64,000 nt of DNA from a virus (taxonomy: Duplodnaviria; Caudoviricetes). The stretch spans positions 32,001-96,000 of the IMG/VR virus record IMGVR_UViG_2889049205_000001; one strand, 5' to 3'. The notes beneath the pieces are model-generated. The model saw nothing but the letters and a program-made list of their open reading frames with translations. It was not told the origin of the DNA and did not search any database. Each line of letters starts with the position of its first letter. The stretch's first letter is position 1. Shown one piece after another: positions 1,425-63,793 of the stretch. The translations under genes were made by a program, and so were the position numbers.

Positions 1425-4400
1425 CTACCTCACCTGCACCTTCTTGATTTTTTGGATCGCCGCAAGATTTAGCTCCAACATTTTGCCGCTGCCGAGTACG
1501 ACGGGGTTGACGAATGCACTTTCTGTTGAAGTCGTTTCCCCTGCTCCCGATGAAGAGATGCTTTTCATCTCTTCTGCTTGACACGTATCAATTACCATAT
1601 CATGCAAAGTGTATTTCTCGCTCATAAGAAGCGCATTACTCTTGAAGTTGAGCTTAGCCAGATTGATTGCGTTGATCCTTTCGAGGTCCTGCAATCTACC
1701 TTCAATCGTTAGCTCATCGTATATGATCTTGATCGATTGGATTGTCGGGGTTTTATCCGACACCGGTTTCGGCGTGATGGTGATTAGATCAGCAAATGCG
1801 TTGTCTGTGATCTCTTCGATCTCCAGGTAGAAGGCGAATCGAATCTTGTTTGAGCCGCCCAGAAGCTCTTTCCATTGATCAATTGCAATACTATTGAACA
1901 CTGCTGGCGACAGGCCATTTGCCTTGACGTCGGCCAAATTCGACGGCTCAACTGTGATCCATTGGGAGGAAATAGACTTCCATGTCGCTCCCTGATTGAC
2001 ACTGGCAATGATCCTTACGTTGCCAGCACCTTCGGCTTTTGCTGTTAGAGTCAAACTGTCAATCCCTTGTGCTGGAAGGATAATGTCCCCTGTTGGAAAT
2101 ACGAGGCGCCCCTTTGGAACAGCAGTCAAGGCAGCTTGCTTTGATTGGGCTTGAGTGTCACTTGTCCACACAAGAAGCTCTGGTGTCAACGAGACTAGCT
2201 GCTGAAGCATGGTATTGTTAATGAGAGACAAATCATCCATCCCATCGGAGTCGAACATTTCTCTTGTCACCGGGGCCTCGCCTACTTTGATCCAACCACT
2301 TGCGGTTGGTGGCGTTGTTGGCAAGATGCGCACTTCCGACAATTGAACCCAGTTGCCCCCCACACCATAAAACTCGAACTTATAGTATTTAAAAGCTGTG
2401 TCGTTTCCGAAGGTAAATGGCAGCTTGGTTGTCGCAGCCCCATTAAACCCAGTGCTGGCAATGCTGGCGACGAGCAAATAGTCAGACCCATTATTGCTAC
2501 CATAAATATTAAAGCTCGCCGGCGCATCGGCCCCCCTATCACCAGAAGTCAGATCAACGCTTGAGATTGCGATCGCCGATGATAGTTCAAAGATTACGGA
2601 TTGCGGACCACTTCCGTTCGACCACCAGATCGTGTTGGTTGCACCATCTACGAGATTAGAAGGCGGCCCTTGGTATGAAGTAGTCGCCGACACAGATGTA
2701 ATGGTTGGCAGCACTCCTGTTGTCAAGACGCACTTTTTAATATCTGTTCCATCTTGAAACAGATATTTTGCACTGAACAGCAATTCAATTATAAAAACAG
2801 GACGGTAGCAGTTATTCGTTGGTCCTGCTTCGCTGGATAAAACACCACTGAATCCGGAAGCAGAACTATTACCTCTCACTACCCTTGACCCTGCCCCAGA
2901 TGAATTACTGTTACTGCCGGCCGGGGCAGTCGTACTTGTTAATGACCATTTTCCAGTCCAGTTCCAGGTATTGTTATCTCCAGCTGTTATAGTGCCTCCG
3001 AGCGTCGAGCCACCGATATATTTATCCCACTCATTGTCTTTATCAGCTGAACCTATCCCGCCTGAGAGTAGCCGTGCAGACACGACAAATTGGTCAGCAA
3101 TTGATAGCGAAGGTAAATCAACTCCTGTTGCATAGCCCGCTCGATTAAGTGCATCCCATGAGATTGAGCTCTGGATATTTCGGTCTGCAATTAATTTAAT
3201 GCGTTCATCCCCTCTCTCTGCACCAACGCAGATCAGATAGAAGGCACCGCTAGGCGTTGATGCCGGACTGGCCGGAAGCAGATCAAGTGTGTTATTCCCC
3301 AGCGACCTAAAAGCACCAGGCGATCCAGCAACAGGAGCCTCGTAGTAACAGCGAATCCTTTTGCCAACAGTGAGCTCTTTGGGATTAGTGACTTCATCTG
3401 GATGAATAAGGTACCCGGTAGCATCGATATCAATAGCATCAATGGAAAAAATATTACTAGTGCTATCGGTAGTTATGACTACCTCATGCGTTGACAAAGG
3501 CAGATTCAGTGCCTCGAATACGATGAGTTGATAACTATTTAAGGCGTTGTTGGGGTTATATGAGTATCGCACTCCATCGACGCTAACTTTTACATTACTT
3601 ACCCTGTTCGTATAATATAAGTCGATGATTCGCAAATTCTTTCCATAAAATTTAAAACTAATGGAATTGGTAGTGGCTCCGGAAAGTGTCATGTAGTGGC
3701 CTGTCCCTGCATAAGTATTGGGGTCATTTGTAACTGTCGCCCAACCTCCGCCTGCGTATTTGATTGAAGGATGAATATCATCATATCTCCGCCATCCAGG
3801 CTCCGGAGCAGTTAGCCTCTGCCCCACTTGGGCGACCATATAGCCGGTTGCATCGATATCGATTGCATCAACGCCAATGTAGCCCGTTCCTGCTAGAGAC
3901 AGCTCAACAGTATGAACGCCCAGAGCCAACCCCACAATTTCATAGACGAGTGTTTGGTACTGGTATGGACTTCCTTGGGGATTGTAAGTTCCCGCATCCG
4001 ACCCATCTATCTTGATATTAATCGTCGTTCTATTGGTTTCTTTCAGCTCAATAATGCGGAACTTCGTACCGTAAAATCGAAATACGACTTTTGCATCAGA
4101 GTTACTACTCGCAGAGGTTGATCCGCCTTCATAGTTGGTATGACTGTAGCTCGCCCATCCCGATCCGAGGTATGCAATATGCGAGTCCGTGTTGCTTACA
4201 CGCAGCCAGGTTGGCTCGGGAGCGGTTAGCTGCTGTCCAACTTGGGCAAGCATCCATCCTGTTGAGTCAATATCTATAGCATCCAGGCCAATGTATCCAG
4301 ATGTTTCCAGTGTAATTTCAACGGTGTGTATGCCGATCGTAAGTCCTTTCTTCTCATAAACAAGCCGCTGAAACAAAGAGCTTGCTGCAAGCGTGGAGTA

Positions 4401-40661: not shown

Positions 40662-42389
40662 TTAGTACGTTACAGACCAGGTAATCCGCATGCCGGTGTT
40701 CTTGTCTTTCGTTACAGGACCGATGCCACTGATGTTGAACATGTCGCCATCGAGCTGATCCGTGAACATTCCCACCGTATAGATTTCGTGCGTTTCGTTC
40801 AGCCAGCTGTATTTCACCGCAACGACGTCGCTTGGAACCAAACTTGTATTGAAGGAAACCTGCTTGCCGTCCGAAGAGATCGTGTAATGCGTATCCTTCG
40901 TCAGCACAGTCCCATTGCGTCTCACCTCGACGATGAAGTTGCCAGAGAGGTCTTTGGTAATAGCATGCTTCAGCCCGTAAGAAGAGACGCCCGCCGCAAT
41001 GGTCAACAGTTCGTTTGGTTCTTCTTGAACCACAGGCCCAGGAACGCCTTTCGGGAAATCTGCCACGTACTGAACCGTCGTTCCGGAGTTGATTCGGTAT
41101 TCAACCGTGATCTGCCCAGGAGTTTCAACAGGTACGCCCTGCGTCGGAGCAGAGCTGAACTGCAAGATGCCTTGCGTCGGGTTCAGCAACCATACGTCGC
41201 CTTTACCGATTTCAAGACCTTTGGTCGCCGAATCGATCTTGTAGCTTGTCACAGTGTGATCAAGCGCTTCGTGGCGAATGGCAACCAGTTCAAGAACCGG
41301 GCCTTCAGCAAGTCCGTATACCAGATGGTCGTTGTTCAGCTGCTCTTGGTACTTGATCTCGATCGCAGCATTCAGTGCCGGGACAGCCGTCAGCTTCACT
41401 GTGCCCGCTGTTGCATCCACGATGCTTGCGGCGATGTCCGTACCGTCCACTTTCACGCTGACCAGTTTGAGCACCTTGTTGGTGTTCGCCAGATCAAACG
41501 TATCTTTAGCGGCGTCTCCGATGTCGTTTTGCGTTTTTTCAACGAAAGCGATCGGCTTGGTCGGAAGCACCTGGATCTCCGCTTCGCCTTTGGATACGGC
41601 AGCCGGATATTGAACCAGCTGACGGAAGCCAGTGAACTCGCCCTCCAGAACTTTGCGGAGCTTGTCGCCAGTGGCGAATTCTACAGGCTTGCCAGAAGGA
41701 TGGGTCGCAGGTTTACCGCCGATGCCCATAAAGCCCAGGGAATACCGGATCTTGTAGCTGTAGCTCACTTCGACAGCAGACTTCGCAGTTGCGAAGAATA
41801 CTTTGCCCGTTCTGTGGTCGATCTTGTAGGTTTTGTCAGCGTCCGAAGGAACCGCACCCCGTTTATACGCAACGCCGGCAACCTTAACGACTTCGGTGCC
41901 ATTTACGATCTCAACGTAAGCATTGACCGTGCGGCGGAAATCAATCTTCACTTGGTTCAGCGGCGCCACTTTGAAGACGATTTTTCCTTCGTCCGCATTG
42001 CCCACGTACACGTCTTGCTCCAAGACCAGATCCACACCGTCTACGGTGACTTTTTTGAGTTCCGTGATCATCGTGACGTCTGGAATTGCGATAACAGTAT
42101 CCGCATTCGTAGCGCCTTTGTTGACCTCGTAGGAGCCCTCTGCCTCCCGCTGCCTGGAGAGGTTGAACACATATTGCCCGTCGCCATTAGCGGCGAGCAG
42201 CGTGTCCCCCTTATCGACTTGCTGAGCTTTCACGGTTTTGGCCGGGTCGCTCATGACTTTGCCGACAATTTCATTGGCCGTCAGGACGACGAGGTTCTTT
42301 TTCTCCTTGGAAAACGTAACCTCGCCCTTCTTGTTGTAAAGCTCCAGCTTTACTCGGCCTCTTGCTTGCAGTTGCATTTGATCGTTCAT
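40662..42389 (-). CDS. Collar/whisker fibre-like protein with repeated beta-sandwich inserts
   Basis: NLVV..A..I at the N-terminus, TK....G.RITW at the C-terminus; paralogue of 42411-44486; strongly biased codons. Confidence 0.6.
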   Translation of the reverse strand: MNDQMQLQARGRVKLELYNKKGEVTFSKEKKNLVVLTANEIVGKVMSDPAKTVKAQQVDKGDTLLAANGDGQYVFNLSRQREAEGSYEVNKGATNADTVIAIPDVTMITELKKVTVDGVDLVLEQDVYVGNADEGKIVFKVAPLNQVKIDFRRTVNAYVEIVNGTEVVKVAGVAYKRGAVPSDADKTYKIDHRTGKVFFATAKSAVEVSYSYKIRYSLGFMGIGGKPATHPSGKPVEFATGDKLRKVLEGEFTGFRQLVQYPAAVSKGEAEIQVLPTKPIAFVEKTQNDIGDAAKDTFDLANTNKVLKLVSVKVDGTDIAASIVDATAGTVKLTAVPALNAAIEIKYQEQLNNDHLVYGLAEGPVLELVAIRHEALDHTVTSYKIDSATKGLEIGKGDVWLLNPTQGILQFSSAPTQGVPVETPGQITVEYRINSGTTVQYVADFPKGVPGPVVQEEPNELLTIAAGVSSYGLKHAITKDLSGNFIVEVRRNGTVLTKDTHYTISSDGKQVSFNTSLVPSDVVAVKYSWLNETHEIYTVGMFTDQLDGDMFNISGIGPVTKDKNTGMRITWSVTY

Positions 42390-58363: not shown

Positions 58364-59101
58364 TCACTCTCCTTCTTCGAAACCGATCGGCTGCGCCTCA
58401 ATTACGGTGGCAGATCCATTCATGCGGGCGTAGTAGGCTTTTTCGGCTTCGTCTTCCTGCTCCTCTAAAAAGGTCACGTCCGTCTTGAGCTTGAGCATCT
58501 CTGCCGCTCGTTGGGACGGATCCACCTCGACAGTAATCTTGGTGCCCTCTTTATCTTTACGTGTCGAGTTCATCAACTGCATGGTCTTGAACAGACTTTG
58601 GCGCAGCTTCTCTTTGTACTCGACAACCGGGTGCAGCTCGGACTTGGTGATTGGCTCGGAGTCTTCCGTCATACCGATCGTATTCTGAATAATAAAGTCG
58701 GCGTCGATCGCCATTTTATTGTCGCAACGGAGCATCGTAACGCCGATATCGACGAGCTCTCGAATCATAATTAAATCCACTGTGCTGCGTGGGTCTTCCG
58801 GCTTTATCTTAAAGTGCTCACAATATCGGTCATAGAGATCCTCAATCGCCGCAATCTCAATCGGACATTTCTCTTCTACCGGCGCCATATCTGCTTTGTA
58901 CAGGAAGCAATTCTCCCGGTATGGGCAAGCCTGCCCCTTGCAGATGATCGGAACGCTGGCATAAAGGCCGTGCTTCGTGTTTCGCATACGTTTCGCCACA
59001 TCAATGGCTGCCACGGCATCCGGATTAAGTGTCCATGCGGTTGGATTCAGGTTCTGGGATACAGTAAGCTTCCCAGCTTCGGTTTTTGGTCCTGTACTCA
59101 T
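58364..59101 (-). CDS. Probable terminase small subunit
   Basis: STGPKT.AGK...N...KHGLYA motif, Cys cluster (C....C.....C...C) and helical body, upstream of terL. Confidence 0.55.
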   Translation of the reverse strand: MSTGPKTEAGKLTVSQNLNPTAWTLNPDAVAAIDVAKRMRNTKHGLYASVPIICKGQACPYRENCFLYKADMAPVEEKCPIEIAAIEDLYDRYCEHFKIKPEDPRSTVDLIMIRELVDIGVTMLRCDNKMAIDADFIIQNTIGMTEDSEPITKSELHPVVEYKEKLRQSLFKTMQLMNSTRKDKEGTKITVEVDPSQRAAEMLKLKTDVTFLEEQEDEAEKAYYARMNGSATVIEAQPIGFEEGE

Positions 59102-59249
59102 CCCTGCACATCCCTCTGAAAATAAAATAGAGGCCGGCGCCCTCACCCCCTATTATCCCAATCGGTGTTAGTTAGGGCGGCGCCTAGACCCCTGCTTCTT
59201 AATTTTACACCCTAGCCATAGAGCAACTAAAACCCGCTCCTGGCGCAAC

Positions 59250-59281
59250 AAAAAAAGCAGCTCCCGGTATTGGGAGCTGCT
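59250..59281 (-). terminator. Intrinsic terminator of parMR operon
   Basis: Minus strand AGCAGCTCCC-AATACC-GGGAGCTGCT followed by TTTTTT. Confidence 0.85.
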
Positions 59282-59288
59282 CGTTGGT

Positions 59289-59447
59289 TCATTCAGATGG
59301 TTTGTTGTTTTCCTGCTTATTCTTCTCGATTTCTATCGCAAGCTTGAGCAGGCGGCGTACTTCGTGTGATTGGTCGCCTTTAGGGATCTCGTCGAAGTGA
59401 TCCTTTATGGCTGTATCCACGTCCCTTATTCTCGCTTGTAAGAGCAT
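59289..59447 (-). CDS. ParR-like ribbon-helix-helix adaptor (not in ORF track)
   Basis: MLLQARIRDVDTAIKDHFDEIPKGDQSHEVRRLLKLAIEIEKNKQENNKPSE has a strand-helix-helix pattern. An in-frame GTG at 59456 overlaps the parM stop. Confidence 0.75.
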   Translation of the reverse strand: MLLQARIRDVDTAIKDHFDEIPKGDQSHEVRRLLKLAIEIEKNKQENNKPSE

Positions 59448-59452
59448 ATTGG

Positions 59453-60664
59453 TCACACTGCCTCTTCAAGCATTTGGAGGAATGGCACTACGTATTCCTC
59501 GAAGATTTCATCTTGCGGCATGCCCTTTTGAACCAGGTTCAGGACCGCCATTTCATAGAATCCGATAACGTTGCTGTATTGAGCCATTTCGGCTTTGAAC
59601 AGACCACCAACGTTTTTCGACTTGAATGCCAAGACGAGAGAATCGAAGAAGATATCGGCGCCGCCACCGGTGATCAGGATACCCTGCAGACGCTGAATCT
59701 CACTGCCCCATGCTCGGGTTACTTCGTCCACGATCAGTTCAGCAACCTCTTCCACGGATTCTGTGATTTCTGGCGTCACGTCGTGAGTTTCTCCAGCGTA
59801 CCACAGCGACTTCGTGCGGATCATTACGTCAAGATCCGTATCAGTTGCCTTGTACTCGTAGCCTTCTGCAGCGAACTTAATCGCAAGTTTCGTGCGCAGC
59901 TTGTCGTACACAAGGTTCGTCGCTTCAGTGGAGATTGAAGTGCCTTCTTCTTCACGGATGAATCCATCTTCGAAGAGTGCGGCATCCGTTGTGCCTTGGC
60001 CGATGTCAATGACGCCATGATATTTTGGTGCTTTGCCGGCAGGCAGCAGCAACGTTTTTTCTTCCCTATAGTTAGGATTGAATCTGTAGGTATGATCGAG
60101 AACCGTTCCTTCCGGCTGGCGGATGATATCGACATCGATTACGTTGATTTTCTTGATTACAGTTTTTCCATGGCCCAAGTTGAATGTGATCTCAAAGGAT
60201 TGCTTCAAGTATTCGACCAGCTTGTCCGCATAAATTTTACCGTAATCTTCATTCGGTACGCCTGTCTCCAGGATAACGTCGTACTCGCCTTCTTCATCTG
60301 GAACACCAAGGGCGATCGCTGTGCGGAACAAGACTTGGCTGTCTGTATCTGTTGCACGATCACGAGCCTCTGTACGGTTCGATGTGCGTCCGCCGGTTTT
60401 CGTGCGGGCCTGGTCGCCAACCATATGTGTTTTTCCGTCGATCGTTACAACCAGCTTCTGACGGTTGATTTCATCAAAATTGAACAATTTCGTGCTCGGC
60501 TGTCCGGAAACCACGATGCTTGGAAACACGTACTGAATCCCTGCACTGGAAAGGAGCTTGCCCCATCCGAAACCCATGTCAAGTGCGATTAGAATTGGAC
60601 GTTTCGTCTTTGCCAATGGAATACCGGACTTCGGTGCTGCCTTGGATGAACTTGCTGCTGGCAT
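59453..60664 (-). CDS. parM: ParM/StbA-family actin-like ATPase
   Basis: ALDMGFGWGK (phosphate 1), QPEG, IDIGQGTTD (phosphate 2), ITGGGA, N..GF. Confidence 0.9.
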   Translation of the reverse strand: MPAASSSKAAPKSGIPLAKTKRPILIALDMGFGWGKLLSSAGIQYVFPSIVVSGQPSTKLFNFDEINRQKLVVTIDGKTHMVGDQARTKTGGRTSNRTEARDRATDTDSQVLFRTAIALGVPDEEGEYDVILETGVPNEDYGKIYADKLVEYLKQSFEITFNLGHGKTVIKKINVIDVDIIRQPEGTVLDHTYRFNPNYREEKTLLLPAGKAPKYHGVIDIGQGTTDAALFEDGFIREEEGTSISTEATNLVYDKLRTKLAIKFAAEGYEYKATDTDLDVMIRTKSLWYAGETHDVTPEITESVEEVAELIVDEVTRAWGSEIQRLQGILITGGGADIFFDSLVLAFKSKNVGGLFKAEMAQYSNVIGFYEMAVLNLVQKGMPQDEIFEEYVVPFLQMLEEAV

Positions 60665-60665
60665 A

Positions 60666-60725
60666 TGTATGTTCCACCTTTCATTTTGTCATACGATGTA
60701 TGAACATGTATGAATCTGTATGACA
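60666..60725. repeat. parC-like iterons
   Basis: TGTATGA at 60697, 60707 and 60717 (10-bp period), inverted TGTCATAC at 60687 and TGTATG at 60666. Confidence 0.7.
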
Positions 60726-60754
60726 ATAATAGCATGTCCAAAATGCAGATGCAA
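60726..60754 (-). promoter_or_regulatory. SigA-type promoter of parMR
   Basis: TTGCAT-N17-TATTAT with extended TG, directly upstream of the iterons. Confidence 0.65.
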
Positions 60755-60801
60755 GAACAATTTTCCATTAGAATTCGTCAGTATTTTTCGCTAAAAAACG
60801 C

Positions 60802-60829
60802 AAAAACAGCGGGTGTGCCGCCCGCTGTT
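60802..60829 (-). terminator. Intrinsic terminator
   Basis: Minus strand AACAGCGGG-CGGCACA-CCCGCTGTT followed by TTT. Confidence 0.8.
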
Positions 60830-60897
60830 AGTGCATTCCGTATTCAATGTGATCAGGAGGTGCTCCATGAACAAAGATCGATCAGTGACTATTAACA

Positions 60898-60913
60898 GTG
60901 TAATGCATTACAC
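60898..60913. promoter_or_regulatory. Perfect 16-bp palindrome GTGTAATGCATTACAC
   Basis: Read directly; related copies at 30775, 53445 and 61877. Confidence 0.7.
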
Positions 60914-60945
60914 CATTAAAATCAAGATTTAATTTGTCCATCATG

Positions 60946-60991
60946 CGAACCTTTGTTCCTATATTTTATAGGAGAACACATGTTCTGTAAA
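60946..60991 (-). promoter_or_regulatory. SigA promoter with two LexA/DinR (Cheo) boxes
   Basis: TTTACA-N17-TAAAAT. GAAC-N4-GTTC at 60974-60985 (in the spacer) and at 60947-60958 (around +1). Confidence 0.8.
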
Positions 60992-61002
60992 TAGGCCATA
61001 AT

Positions 61003-61034
61003 AAAATAAAAAATCCCCGATTATCTCGGAGATT
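61003..61034 (-). terminator. Intrinsic terminator of the tRNA operon
   Basis: Minus strand AATCTCCGA-GATAA-TCGGGGATT followed by TTTTATTTT. Confidence 0.75.
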
Positions 61035-61077
61035 GGTTATTGGAGGCGGCGATCGATACGACCTCCGCCGGACGCCC

Positions 61078-61314
61078 TTATTCAGCTGCTACGAAGACCT
61101 TTTCTACCTGGCCGTAAACGAACCCCGGTTGCTCTACGTTGTGCTCGATAAATGCTTTCGCATCGTCGTAGGTTTCAACAGGATCACTTTCGATCTTGTC
61201 GATGGCGAAAAAGCTTCCGTCTTTTGCTTCAGCGGGATGCATCTGCTCAAGGATTTCTGCAGGAATCTCGGATTTGACGCTTACCACGCCGATAAATTTT
61301 TCAATCAATGGCAT
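61078..61314 (-). CDS. Hypothetical acidic protein (78 aa)
   Basis: Start MPLIEK behind GAGGTG. The longer ORF-track start runs into tRNA-Pro. Confidence 0.7.
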   Translation of the reverse strand: MPLIEKFIGVVSVKSEIPAEILEQMHPAEAKDGSFFAIDKIESDPVETYDDAKAFIEHNVEQPGFVYGQVEKVFVAAE

Positions 61315-61349
61315 ATTGTTCACCTCATCCTTGGCAATGTAAATGGTTA

Positions 61350-61426
<77 letters not shown>

Positions 61427-61431
61427 ATACG

Positions 61432-61505
61432 GGCAGCGTGATCGGACTCGAACCGCACAACAATCCCCTTCCACAGGAGATGCTTTTCCGTTAAGCTAAC
61501 GCTGC
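61432..61505 (-). pseudogene. Degenerate tRNA (possibly His-derived)
   Basis: Acceptor GCAGCGT/ACGCTGC and GGTTCGA T-loop present, but the anticodon loop is out of register (TGTGGAA), the T-stem is imperfect and no CCA is encoded. Confidence 0.6.
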
Positions 61506-61508
61506 ATA

Positions 61509-61584
61509 TGGCTGACCGACCAGGGTTCGAACCTGGGACCCACGGATTAACAGTCCGTTGCTCTACCTGCTGAGCTATCGATCA
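61509..61584 (-). tRNA. tRNA-Asn(GUU)
   Basis: ACGGA-CTGTTAA-TCCGT anticodon arm, TTCGAAC loop, CCA end. Confidence 0.95.
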
Positions 61585-61588
61585 AAAT

Positions 61589-61662
61589 TGGCACCGGCTG
61601 AAGGATTCGAACCAACGCTGACGGTTTTGGAGACCGCTGTTCTACCATTGAACTAAGCCGAT
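61589..61662 (-). tRNA. tRNA-Trp(CCA)
   Basis: GCGGT-CTCCAAA-ACCGT anticodon arm and CCA end; two T-T mismatches in the T-stem. Confidence 0.9.
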
Positions 61663-61666
61663 ATGT

Positions 61667-61743
61667 TGGTTGCAGAGGAGGGATTCGAACCCCCGACCTT
61701 CTGGGCATGAGCCAGACGAGCTACCATGCTGCTCTACTCCGCT
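61667..61743 (-). tRNA. tRNA-Met(CAU), initiator-like
   Basis: TCTGG-CTCATGC-CCAGA anticodon arm, 1:72 mismatch, A11-U24, CCA end. Confidence 0.9.
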
Positions 61744-61863
61744 ATAATAAGGAGGTGCCCTCGCCCCGTTCAATAACGATCGAACCAATGTCCGGTCGCC
61801 TAACGAGGCGAGAACAACAAATGCCAGTACCTTCCGCAAGGAGGAACATGACTCGCCGAAATC

Positions 61864-61892
61864 AATATACCATATTGCGTAACGCATTACAA
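61864..61892 (-). promoter_or_regulatory. SigA-type promoter of tRNA operon overlapped by a palindrome variant
   Basis: TTGTAA-N17-TATATT with extended TG; GCGTAACGCATTACAA at 61877-61892. Confidence 0.7.
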
Positions 61893-61913
61893 CACTATGT
61901 TTTTTTTCTTGAA

Positions 61914-62072
61914 CTAACCAGCGAATGCTTCTTGTCTTTCATATTCTTGAAGCTCTTCTTCTCGGATTGCCGGTACGATTGCTTCCGGACGATTCAACAG
62001 AAGCATGAGAATAAAGTAAACGAGCCAGTGGCTGACGCCTGTCTTAACCAGTCGCCTGGTAATTGCTTTCAT
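61914..62072 (-). CDS. Small membrane protein (52 aa)
   Basis: MKAITRRLVKTGVSHWLVYFILMLLLNRPEAIV..., with a GGGGGTG RBS. Confidence 0.5.
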   Translation of the reverse strand: MKAITRRLVKTGVSHWLVYFILMLLLNRPEAIVPAIREEELQEYERQEAFAG

Positions 62073-62757
62073 AGGAACCACCCCCTTCCTCAAACTCGCA
62101 CATCATTTCCCGTTCGAAGCGATCATGAGGCATCTCTCGCTGCACCTGTGCCATTTCAGCCATCGTCAGCACCTCAATACTTGTAATTCGTCGTGCCATC
62201 TTTCCCTGCTCCCTGATGCGCCTGTAGAAGCTCTTGAACGCTGTCGGATGCGGCCCATTAATTGTGCCGACCATAATGACGTTGGCGATCATAAGCAGAT
62301 GGTCAAACTCTCTCCGGTCTTCCAGGAATTCTAAAACAGCCGGCATGTTCTCGGGATCCTCGAAAATAACCTCCTTGCTGTGGAACAGGTCATATCCCCT
62401 ATACTGCTGGTAGCTATAATTAGATACGATGTAGATGGTTTTTCCGTTGACGTATACCTCTTTGTATCCATTGCGCTGCGTGAGGACTTCGTACTCGTGG
62501 CCGAGCTCCCTGGCGATCTCAGTGAACCTATTCATTCGATGCGACGAGTCGAGGATCGAGGTTACGAGCACCGTATCCCGCTTATTCAGAATGGCTCTCT
62601 TGAGAATTGCTGTCGTCTTTCCGGTCGCCCTGCCAGCTATGATGCATTTGTTCTCTGCGTCCGCATTGATGAAGTCATCCCAGACTCTATATGCGTTGTC
62701 GCTTCGATACAGCCGATCTGCCGGATGCAGCTCCAAATACTGGTGTACGAGCTCCAT
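62044..62757 (-). CDS. Stand-alone terminase-like ATPase domain
   Basis: GRATGKTT, RG, VIFED, VGT and M....F.RE..CEF; no nuclease domain. Confidence 0.65.
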   Translation of the reverse strand: MELVHQYLELHPADRLYRSDNAYRVWDDFINADAENKCIIAGRATGKTTAILKRAILNKRDTVLVTSILDSSHRMNRFTEIARELGHEYEVLTQRNGYKEVYVNGKTIYIVSNYSYQQYRGYDLFHSKEVIFEDPENMPAVLEFLEDRREFDHLLMIANVIMVGTINGPHPTAFKSFYRRIREQGKMARRITSIEVLTMAEMAQVQREMPHDRFEREMMCEFEEGGGSYESNYQATG

Positions 62758-63221: not shown

Positions 63222-63356
63222 TCACCATACGACCCAATGGATTAGCCGTGAAATTCCGCATCCTGCGACGACTGCACCAATTGTGATAATGAGAGCCCAT
63301 GCAATTCCAAGACAGACGCCGAGCCCTCTTTCATCCGCTTCTTTTCTGCTCATCAT
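63222..63356 (-). CDS. Small membrane protein (44 aa)
   Basis: MMSRKEADERGLGVCLGIAWALIITIGAVVAGCGISRLIHWVVW, with a GGAGG RBS. Confidence 0.55.
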   Translation of the reverse strand: MMSRKEADERGLGVCLGIAWALIITIGAVVAGCGISRLIHWVVW

Positions 63357-63793
63357 ATCGATAACCTCCCCGACATCGTAATGGTGTTGCCATCCCATTC
63401 AGGGACCTTCTCTCGCCTCATCACACGCCAGTCACCGGCCATCAGATCTTTCATCTGGGGTTGCCATAGGTGGCACTCCCCGCAGCCGTCAGACACAGCG
63501 TAGATACCGTCCTTTCGCATCTCCAGATAGATCCCGTCCATCCAGCTCAGCCGGATCACCTTATAGCCAGACGGCAACAGGCGCATGACAACGCTGAAAT
63601 CGAACCGATCCATATACTCCAGTTCGGTGTCGGGGCCGGCGGCGATCAAAACCTTCTCGCCTTTGTAACGAGAGTGCCAGAAGCCCGCCAGGGCTTGGGC
63701 GTCCTCGTAGCTCTCGCTCTTGGCGTGGTACACGCCATCATGTACGTGAGCTATGCCGTTTATCTTCCACAGATACGACTCCGCAAGCTCCAT
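63353..63793 (-). CDS. Protein with C-terminal DUF2829/Tad2-like domain
   Basis: F......L..G.KV.R..W....YL...W.P...DL.A.DW. Confidence 0.65.
   Translation of the reverse strand: MELAESYLWKINGIAHVHDGVYHAKSESYEDAQALAGFWHSRYKGEKVLIAAGPDTELEYMDRFDFSVVMRLLPSGYKVIRLSWMDGIYLEMRKDGIYAVSDGCGECHLWQPQMKDLMAGDWRVMRREKVPEWDGNTITMSGRLSI

Follow-up and report, generated by a model that had tools for sequence, protein, structure and literature searches.

Positions 60802 to 60991 of the stretch of DNA analysed here, a window of 64,000 nucleotides (nt) corresponding to bases 32001-96000 of contig C3, carry on the minus strand what we read as a small-RNA gene, conserved among relatives, whose non-coding product is predicted to work in trans and would act as a LexA-gated RNA antirepressor in a mutual-repression switch; judging from sequence, we rate this reading at somewhat below even chances. 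The candidate target is the mRNA of a PadR-like winged-helix regulator encoded on the same contig. The anatomy of the unit, its conservation among relatives and its complementarity to this mRNA carry the proposal, which predicts transcription of the RNA, binding of LexA to its promoter, translational repression of the regulator, the DNA target of the regulator and an induction phenotype. An earlier note on this stretch had seen in it an SOS-induced RNA or peptide antirepressor, possibly an operator-mimicking decoy or an antisense regulator; new here are the target, an inner promoter (P2) and the family-wide conservation.

The outer promoter P1 of the unit (60963-60991, minus strand) consists of TTTACA at 60986-60991, a spacer of 17 nt and TAAAAT at 60963-60968, scores 10 matches out of 12, the measure used for all promoters here, and is the best promoter-like site within the scanned region 59000-62500. 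A pattern search placed two LexA boxes of the form GAAC-N4-GTTC on it: box 1 (60974-60985) lies within the spacer and abuts the -35 element, and box 2 (60947-60958) begins 5 nt after the -10 element and covers the predicted P1 start from about -1 to +12. An intrinsic terminator at 60805-60829 (minus strand; GGCACA in the loop at 60815-60820, followed by a T run) closes a predicted transcript of about 157 nt (60798-60956), in which no open reading frame (ORF) exceeds 39 amino acids (aa). The predicted fold of this long form has a minimum free energy of -49.6 kcal/mol, and none of 200 shuffled sequences folds as well (z = -4.3). The near-consensus promoter with its two boxes, the terminator about 155 nt further on with no sizeable gene between, the perfect palindrome within a long hairpin whose G-U pairs are valid solely in the minus-strand RNA, and a motif opposite in sense to a Shine-Dalgarno (SD) sequence had all been described in the earlier note, and we find each of them there. 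Upstream, a further intrinsic terminator (61012-61034, minus strand; 9-pair stem and T run) ends the preceding unit, made up of a 78-aa ORF (61078-61314) and the tRNA array, and is predicted to insulate the small-RNA gene from transcription arriving from there.

What the earlier note did not mention is a second, weaker promoter under the palindrome. This inner promoter P2 (60897-60925, minus strand; TTGATT at 60920-60925, a spacer of 17 nt, TACACT at 60897-60902) scores 8 out of 12, which is under the cut-off of the scan, and was read from the sequence; it is overlapped by a perfect 16-bp copy of the palindrome (60898-60913), the right half of which holds its -10 element. Two nested promoters sharing one terminator would give two RNAs, the form of about 157 nt from P1 and a core of about 90 nt from P2 (60798-60890, minus strand), the latter being the part which comparison with the relatives shows to be kept. 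With a predicted promoter of its own, an intrinsic terminator and no conserved ORF the unit has the sequence features of a small-RNA gene. Rfam covariance models gave no match at E <= 1 over the unit, neither in this element nor in six relatives.

Contig C3 (228,841 bp, 50% GC) is one of three contigs of a 7.5-Mb genome, which by its size, its GC content and the names borne by homologues may belong to Paenibacillus. The site C3:10729 is repeated at C3:222499, and with a terminal duplication of about 17 kb the contig has about 212 kb of unique sequence; the repeat at both ends may mean that the genome is terminally redundant, or that the assembly of a circular or permuted genome overlaps itself. 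Among the products of the contig are a terminase, virion-type proteins of very large size, five tRNAs and the actin-like protein ParM/Alp7A (59453-60664); we therefore regard the contig as a jumbo phage maintained as a plasmid. DNA similarity searches of phage and plasmid collections returned a tRNA as the sole match and nothing close; ParM was absent from 400 sampled genomes of the host's family, with single-protein locus scans likewise empty, and had no tblastn match in cultured phage records. Related elements were reached through ParM homologues. They comprise uncultured viral contigs of 35-216 kb (L009, L011, L012, L014, L015, L016 and L029), an Alicyclobacillus contig (L010) and six 'plasmids' of 140-260 kb (L034-L039) from Bacillus licheniformis, B. 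paralicheniformis, B. halotolerans, B. thuringiensis, B. cereus G9842 and Paenibacillus urinalis; L140 is a relative of L035 at 91.5% identity. A loose pattern search of the collection gave at least 119 stretches, of which a hairpin filter on the fetched loci left 3 real matches.

Comparison of these relatives, which represent a family of phage-plasmids of 140-260 kb, shows that the RNA gene is conserved. In all 14 lineages the tRNA array (or else a small gene) is separated from parM by a terminator-bounded stretch with no conserved ORF, and in every one of them it contains a CU-rich motif resembling the 3' end of 16S rRNA. Covariation across relatives, which the earlier note had named as a check, is seen in the terminator: in seven lineages the loop GGCACA is invariant and the pairs of the stem below it change with covariation (GC/AU/GU, CG/UA); others, such as the B. 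licheniformis type, have a different loop. These pairs were tallied by a custom script, the structural alignment by MAFFT and RNAalifold being poor. In L034, L036-L038 and L012 the RNA, at a distance of about 150-250 nt ahead of parM, reaches a greater length (about 145-185 nt); a long covarying hairpin displays the anti-SD motif in its loop, and a second covarying hairpin, a small one, comes after it; by its sequence this Bacillus-type RNA may form a distinct sub-family. Two further RNA matches were observed in relatives. In the 216-kb relative L012, positions 3789-4299, between a tRNA and the small-RNA/parM region, match the ROOL RNA (RF03087; 86.5 bits, E = 5e-16, under the gathering score), and in L009, the closest relative, positions 313-373 on the minus strand match the type-P1 twister ribozyme with 64.1 bits against a gathering score of 67.2.

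The target emerged from a genome-wide comparison, for which three complete relatives were fetched and given crude gene calls, each RNA being scored against every translation start region of its own genome. In G401, the record behind L009, the start region of a 204-aa protein stands far out (z = -5.8), its positions -8 to +6 containing a perfect complement of the RNA over 15 nt. The orthologue in this element (C3:130704-131321; 62% identity) lies 38 kb from the RNA gene and outside the window. Its start codon and the next 8 nt are perfectly complementary to positions 19-29 of the RNA, which we term seed 1 (60867-60877, minus strand). Next to it in the RNA the anti-SD motif CACCTCCT (60855-60862, minus strand), which is like the 3' end of 16S rRNA, stands opposite the GGAGG of the target, and seed 2 (60844-60853, minus strand) shows perfect complementarity over 10 nt to the target mRNA where its 5' end is predicted to lie (-64 to -55; -13.2 kcal/mol). 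The terminator loop in turn complements, over 6 nt, the loop of a hairpin in the untranslated region (UTR) of the target at -38 to -33. The helices in this element thus amount to 11, 10 and 6 nt, and the start-region helix together with the CCUCC/GGAGG pairing is computed at -27.5 kcal/mol. Ranked by the longest perfect Watson-Crick stretch, the regulator start is the unique best of 217 in G401 and the tied best of 237 in C3, with 11 nt. Antisense regulation was the right branch of the earlier inference, with the mRNA of the PadR-like regulator as its present candidate target, and the anti-SD motif to which the note drew attention proves relevant.

The RNAs of relatives other than L010 are complementary to the same orthologous gene, by sequences that differ from lineage to lineage. 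L009 combines its 15 nt with a 7-nt loop match at -41, and L035 has 10 nt with a 6-nt loop match at -41. L036 and L038 have helices of 12 and 13 nt. In the B. thuringiensis and B. cereus lineages we find 12 plus 9 and 13 plus 10 nt, the 12-13 nt running across the SD and the 9-10 nt lying at about -35 to -39; the RNAs of B. licheniformis and B. halotolerans cover the SD with 8-9 nt. A complement of the loop at -41 or -38 is present in three GGCACA-loop lineages with a readable leader and a match, which gives the conserved terminator loop a partner in the target leader. The Bacillus RNAs carry CAUCUCC and not the ribosomal CACCUCC, which fits the unusual GGAGAUG in the SD of their target. The complementarity likewise explains a strong ribosome-binding site followed by ATG on the plus strand, as a mirror image of the anti-SD and anti-start segments of the RNA. 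Each RNA was shuffled 400 times with dinucleotide frequencies kept, counting the shuffles that reached the observed stretch: this was the case for 2 of 400 in this element, 0 of 400 in L009, 9 of 400 in L035, 1 of 400 in L036 and 0 of 400 in L038. Combining six clades by Fisher's method, with one representative each, gives p = 1.8e-5, and about 5e-4, calculated by hand, when L009 as the lineage that nominated the target is left out. The complementarity to the regulator start region is kept through sequence change across lineages, with L010 as the exception.

Two other candidates for the target were set aside. The start region of parM ranks 215 of 246, and C3:111048, the first candidate considered, with an 11-nt SD match, has no Pfam family and no orthologue in the relatives; ranking targets by duplexfold with the whole RNA gave nothing specific. 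The 5' extension unique to the long P1 form (60913-60956, minus strand) resembles the start region of the target and pairs with seed 1 in the predicted fold, and it may serve as a built-in mask or as a processing substrate.

The LexA boxes place this RNA under probable SOS control. The pattern GAAC-N4-GTTC occurs three times in the window and also three times in the whole 228.8-kb contig; two of these lie within 40 bp on P1, and the third is at window position 41072 (C3 73072), away from the unit. The host lexA gene (C1:6589401-6590012) has five boxes or half-degenerate or near-boxes upstream and the -35 element of recA is preceded, at a distance of 10 nt, by one box; GAAC-N4-GTTC is therefore the LexA site of this host. 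Box 1 shares the extended form AGAACAT-NN-GTTCT with the boxes of L009, L016 and L035, and perfect boxes of this form stand 247-321 nt upstream of parM in this element and these three lineages, likewise in L140, in which a single change, within the N4 spacer, separates the box from that of L035. In L009, L016, L035 and L140 the boxes with their matching promoters persist despite diverged flanks. The promoter scan puts the boxes of L009, L016 and L035 on or beside promoters of 9-10 out of 12 positioned to drive the RNA: the L035 box abuts the -35 element, the L016 box lies 10 nt upstream of it, the same geometry as at the host recA promoter, and the L009 box is just downstream of the -10 element. 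Whole relatives contain 2-4 boxes per 200 kb, equal to the frequency of control patterns, and the placement of boxes at the RNA promoter is therefore selective and not an effect of density. By box placement and host usage the unit would fit the Firmicutes SOS regulon (LexA/DinR, Cheo box), with P1 predicted to bind LexA and to be induced by damage. A domain search found no Peptidase_S24 domain on C3, therefore no self-cleaving repressor of the CI/LexA type, leaving P1 as the only evident SOS sensor. The earlier view of a discrete, LexA-boxed and terminator-bounded unit, plausibly the SOS input to induction, is thereby strengthened, its boxes being the sole promoter-associated ones on the element.

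The Alicyclobacillus element has no box at its RNA; a perfect CGAAC-N4-GTTCG box is found elsewhere on it, at +8 of a TTGTCG-N17-TATAAT promoter, suggesting the LexA input being wired to different outputs within the family. This boxed promoter (L044 about 640-830, on an Alicyclobacillus shizuokensis contig, G403:89940-90130) precedes a 42-aa acidic helical ORF, which may be a protein-type LexA-controlled output. The Alicyclobacillus RNA matches best a divergent neighbouring gene of 281 aa (z = -3.7).

The predicted target protein is a 205-aa regulator, whose orthologues are annotated by NCBI as winged-helix regulators and, by tblastn, occur in exactly the 9 PLSDB plasmids carrying a ParM homologue. 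The order UDG, MerR-like gene, gap of about 300 nt and regulator is kept. On C3, past the end of the window (C3:128402-131321), a RecA homologue (414 aa), a UDG-family protein and a 70-aa MerR-like protein directly upstream precede the regulator, and this RecA/UDG/MerR-like/regulator order is conserved in the Bacillus plasmids. An AlphaFold model (pLDDT 83.8) has a winged helix-turn-helix, a 70-residue, presumably dimerising helix and, at the C-terminus, a small beta-sheet part. Foldseek gives as its best matches regulators of PadR/LmrR/MarR type, with probability 1.0, E about 2e-3 and a TM score of about 0.5 on the target for PadR/LmrR, so the modelled protein has the PadR-type layout of a winged helix-turn-helix followed by a C-terminal dimerising helix. 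The canonical operator of the PadR family is an ATGT/ACAT inverted repeat with a spacer of 8-10 nt (PMC3506622), and the palindrome of the element, (G/A)TGT-N8-ACA(C/T), has this form.

Searched as a 16-mer with up to 2 mismatches, the palindrome has 15 sites on C3 and 0 on the other two contigs, and its 14-mer core with up to 2 mismatches has 33 sites on C3, 28 of them intergenic. Most copies lie 0-7 nt after a -10 element and before an SD and ATG, one covers a -35 element, and copies are also present at many lytic-gene promoters in the window, for example that of the portal operon; this variable position relative to promoters is the behaviour of an operator and not of a promoter element. One or two operator-like palindromes flank the regulator's own promoter in 8 of 8 lineages examined. 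Pfam scans of small proteins adjoining palindromes identified no binder directly. Taken together the sequences make the regulator the most likely binder of the palindrome and point to an autoregulated repressor which also governs dispersed operators, like C1 of phage P1. At the small-RNA gene, a DNA operator over P2 is a better reading of the palindrome than an RNA element, and it is possible that, when occupied, it also acts as a roadblock to transcription from P1. P2 has counterparts in L009 (TTGATT-N17-TACAAT, detected by the scan with 9 out of 12) and in L010 (TTGCAG-N17-TACAAT, recognised by eye at a place where the scan reported no promoter), and the conserved RNA body starts just past P2.

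These observations can be combined in a model according to which, in the lysogen, host LexA would keep P1 off through the two boxes, and the PadR-like protein would keep P2 and the lytic promoters off by binding the palindrome at about 25 intergenic sites besides P2 and the promoter of its own gene. Once LexA was removed by DNA damage, P1 would fire. The RNA would then pair with the regulator mRNA at the SD and start codon, at the mRNA 5' end and, by its terminator loop kissing the UTR hairpin loop, within the leader; covering SD and AUG would block translation of the regulator. As the regulator decays P2 would open, reinforce the change and tip the switch to lytic growth. In its most far-reaching form the model is a tentative one, to which we give about one chance in three: LexA-gated RNA and PadR-like repressor would silence each other and so make up a bistable RNA-protein switch, with no other SOS input to the 212-kb jumbo phage-plasmid, and the RNA would be the first RNA antirepressor, conserved across Paenibacillus, Bacillus and uncultured relatives.

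Several findings weigh against the RNA acting in this way. The target was nominated post hoc by a genome-wide search, and chance perfect matches of 10-11 nt occur between unrelated pairs. In L010 there is no complementarity to the regulator leader (384 of 400 shuffles reach the observed stretch), and in L034 and L037 it is weak (61 and 128 of 400). In this element the accessibility-weighted score of the target is unremarkable (z = -0.2), since the predicted fold of the RNA already engages seed 1 in internal pairs. In the long P1 form the 5' extension masks this seed, so that the SOS-made RNA may have to be processed or unfolded, or to pair stepwise through kissing loops, before it acts. Each plasmid of the Bacillus lineages contains the matched SD motif 4-6 times, and the RNA may thus have several targets. 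A perfect LexA box at the RNA promoter is found in just 4 of 14 lineages, leaving 10 of 14 without; of the conservation of boxes and hairpin which the earlier note had asked for, the boxes are borne out in these four and the extended hairpin is lost in L009. As to the regulator, Pfam has no significant PadR match, HTH_24 alone appearing with E = 0.005 under the cut-off, and a weak PHROG match over the winged helix is labelled 'replication initiation protein'.

This last match also favours an account which leaves the RNA real, LexA-gated and pairing with the regulator mRNA, and makes the regulator a plasmid-mode replication, copy-number or timing factor and not a lysogeny repressor, so that the RNA would tune replication or gene timing after DNA damage without triggering induction. 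The location of the regulator gene among recA-like, UDG and MerR-like genes and of the RNA gene beside the partition locus agrees with it, and kissing-loop antisense control of rep translation is a classic plasmid design. Nevertheless the fold is that of PadR/LmrR transcription factors and not of two-domain Rep initiators, the protein has just 205 aa including the 70-residue dimerising helix, and PadR-type palindromes flank its promoter and many lytic-gene promoters, for which reasons we regard this account as rather unlikely, though it deserves to be weighed. Considerably less probable is a role of the unit as leader or insulator of parM-parR, with LexA controlling read-through and the terminator hairpin being an antitermination or protein-binding site. 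The unit is always directly upstream of parM, and its conserved loop on a variable stem recalls protein-recognised hairpins such as boxB; every lineage, however, has a strong terminator of 9-17 pairs with a T run, parM has iterons and promoter-like elements of its own past this terminator, its start region matches the RNA poorly, and the multi-site complementarity to a gene 38 kb away would be left unexplained.

The peptide branch of the earlier inference, a LexA-controlled micro-peptide antirepressor, has become very improbable. Both ORFs exist as described, one of 20 aa on the minus strand (60882-60944) and one of 21 aa on the plus strand (60867-60932, inside a listed 39-aa frame), the latter preceded by a strong, well-spaced SD. 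Conservation is lacking for both, even in the closest relative: no relative has a counterpart, and what is shared is limited to the residues M-H-Y, which the palindrome itself encodes. The plus-strand ORF is moreover antisense to the LexA promoter, and its SD and ATG are the mirror of the anti-SD and anti-start segments. Equally improbable is the other branch, an operator-mimicking RNA hairpin which as a transcribed decoy titrates the operator-binding protein. The P1 transcript does contain the perfect palindrome at the tip of a stable hairpin; in L016, L035 and L140, however, the LexA promoter drives the RNA body directly, without the palindrome, which is consequently not a conserved part of the RNA, in L010 the palindrome is confined to the promoter, and the extended stem is not kept in L009. 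Winged-helix proteins also read double-stranded B-form DNA and not A-form RNA. The LexA-gated antisense RNA remains our preferred reading.

Further features of the locus were observed around parM. TGTATGA-type iterons, parC-like, lie upstream of parM (60680-60730), and directly 3' of parM a 52-aa ORF (59289-59447) is a candidate for ParR, followed by a strong terminator (59282-59255); relatives have an ORF of 58-63 aa at the position of the ParR candidate. A Tad2-like domain (Thoeris anti-defence 2; Pfam E = 1e-6) is carried by a protein of 146 aa encoded at 63353-63793 on the minus strand.

DNA damage is known to lead to prophage induction by self-cleaving repressors, by LexA-controlled protein antirepressors or with LexA as the repressor, as in GIL01. 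A LexA-controlled RNA that shuts off synthesis of a phage master regulator would, if true, add an RNA-based route to these. A 2025 review of phage small RNAs lists nothing LexA-controlled (PMC12197685). If true, the switch would also open a first access to lysogeny control in these jumbo phage-plasmids, a family that has hardly been studied and of which several members stand in databases simply as plasmids of Bacillus licheniformis, B. cereus/thuringiensis and Paenibacillus. The proposal lends itself unusually well to testing, as it specifies three short helices for which natural compensatory variants exist, a single operator sequence and a single candidate repressor.

Among known systems Tum of coliphage 186, AntC of N15, itself a plasmid prophage, and GfoA/GfhA of the Gifsy phages are LexA-controlled protein antirepressors which bind the repressor. 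Our unit resembles them in being small, LexA-boxed and separate from the immunity repressor, and in supplying, by prediction, the SOS input where the repressor cannot cleave itself; it differs in having no conserved ORF, the product appearing to be an RNA that pairs with the regulator mRNA. The jumbo phage-plasmid pBtic235 of the Bacillus group is inducible by mitomycin C and has one LexA operator at +1 of a sigma-A promoter (PMC9700832). In contrast to our unit this operator drives a protein operon of seven ORFs, and no small RNA has been described for it (PMC9700832). Neither ParM nor the regulator recovered pBtic235 among the relatives. The c4 RNA of phages P1 and P7 and the sar RNA of P22 are, like the RNA proposed here, short structured phage RNAs which block a ribosome-binding site in a lysis-lysogeny circuit, and phage P1 is also a phage-plasmid with many dispersed operators (PMC12197685). 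Those RNAs, however, silence an antirepressor gene, favour lysogeny and are not SOS-controlled, whereas the LexA-gated RNA is predicted to silence the regulator itself and would thus act with the opposite sign.

A likeness in promoter layout is found in istR-1/istR-2 of E. coli, where two promoters in tandem lead to a common terminator and LexA controls the longer form, just as our nested promoters share a terminator and the longer form is LexA-boxed. IstR, in contrast, pairs with tisB in a type I toxin-antitoxin system, and the unit here lacks an ORF for a hydrophobic toxin, both peptides, of 20 and 21 aa, being polar. With RsaE/RoxS and the hairpins of RNAIII, the C-rich SD-targeting RNAs of Firmicutes, the RNA shares a CU-rich motif like the 3' end of 16S rRNA suited to pairing with an SD; it has no sequence or Rfam relationship to them, is phage-encoded, and carries lineage-specific extensions which match one phage mRNA.

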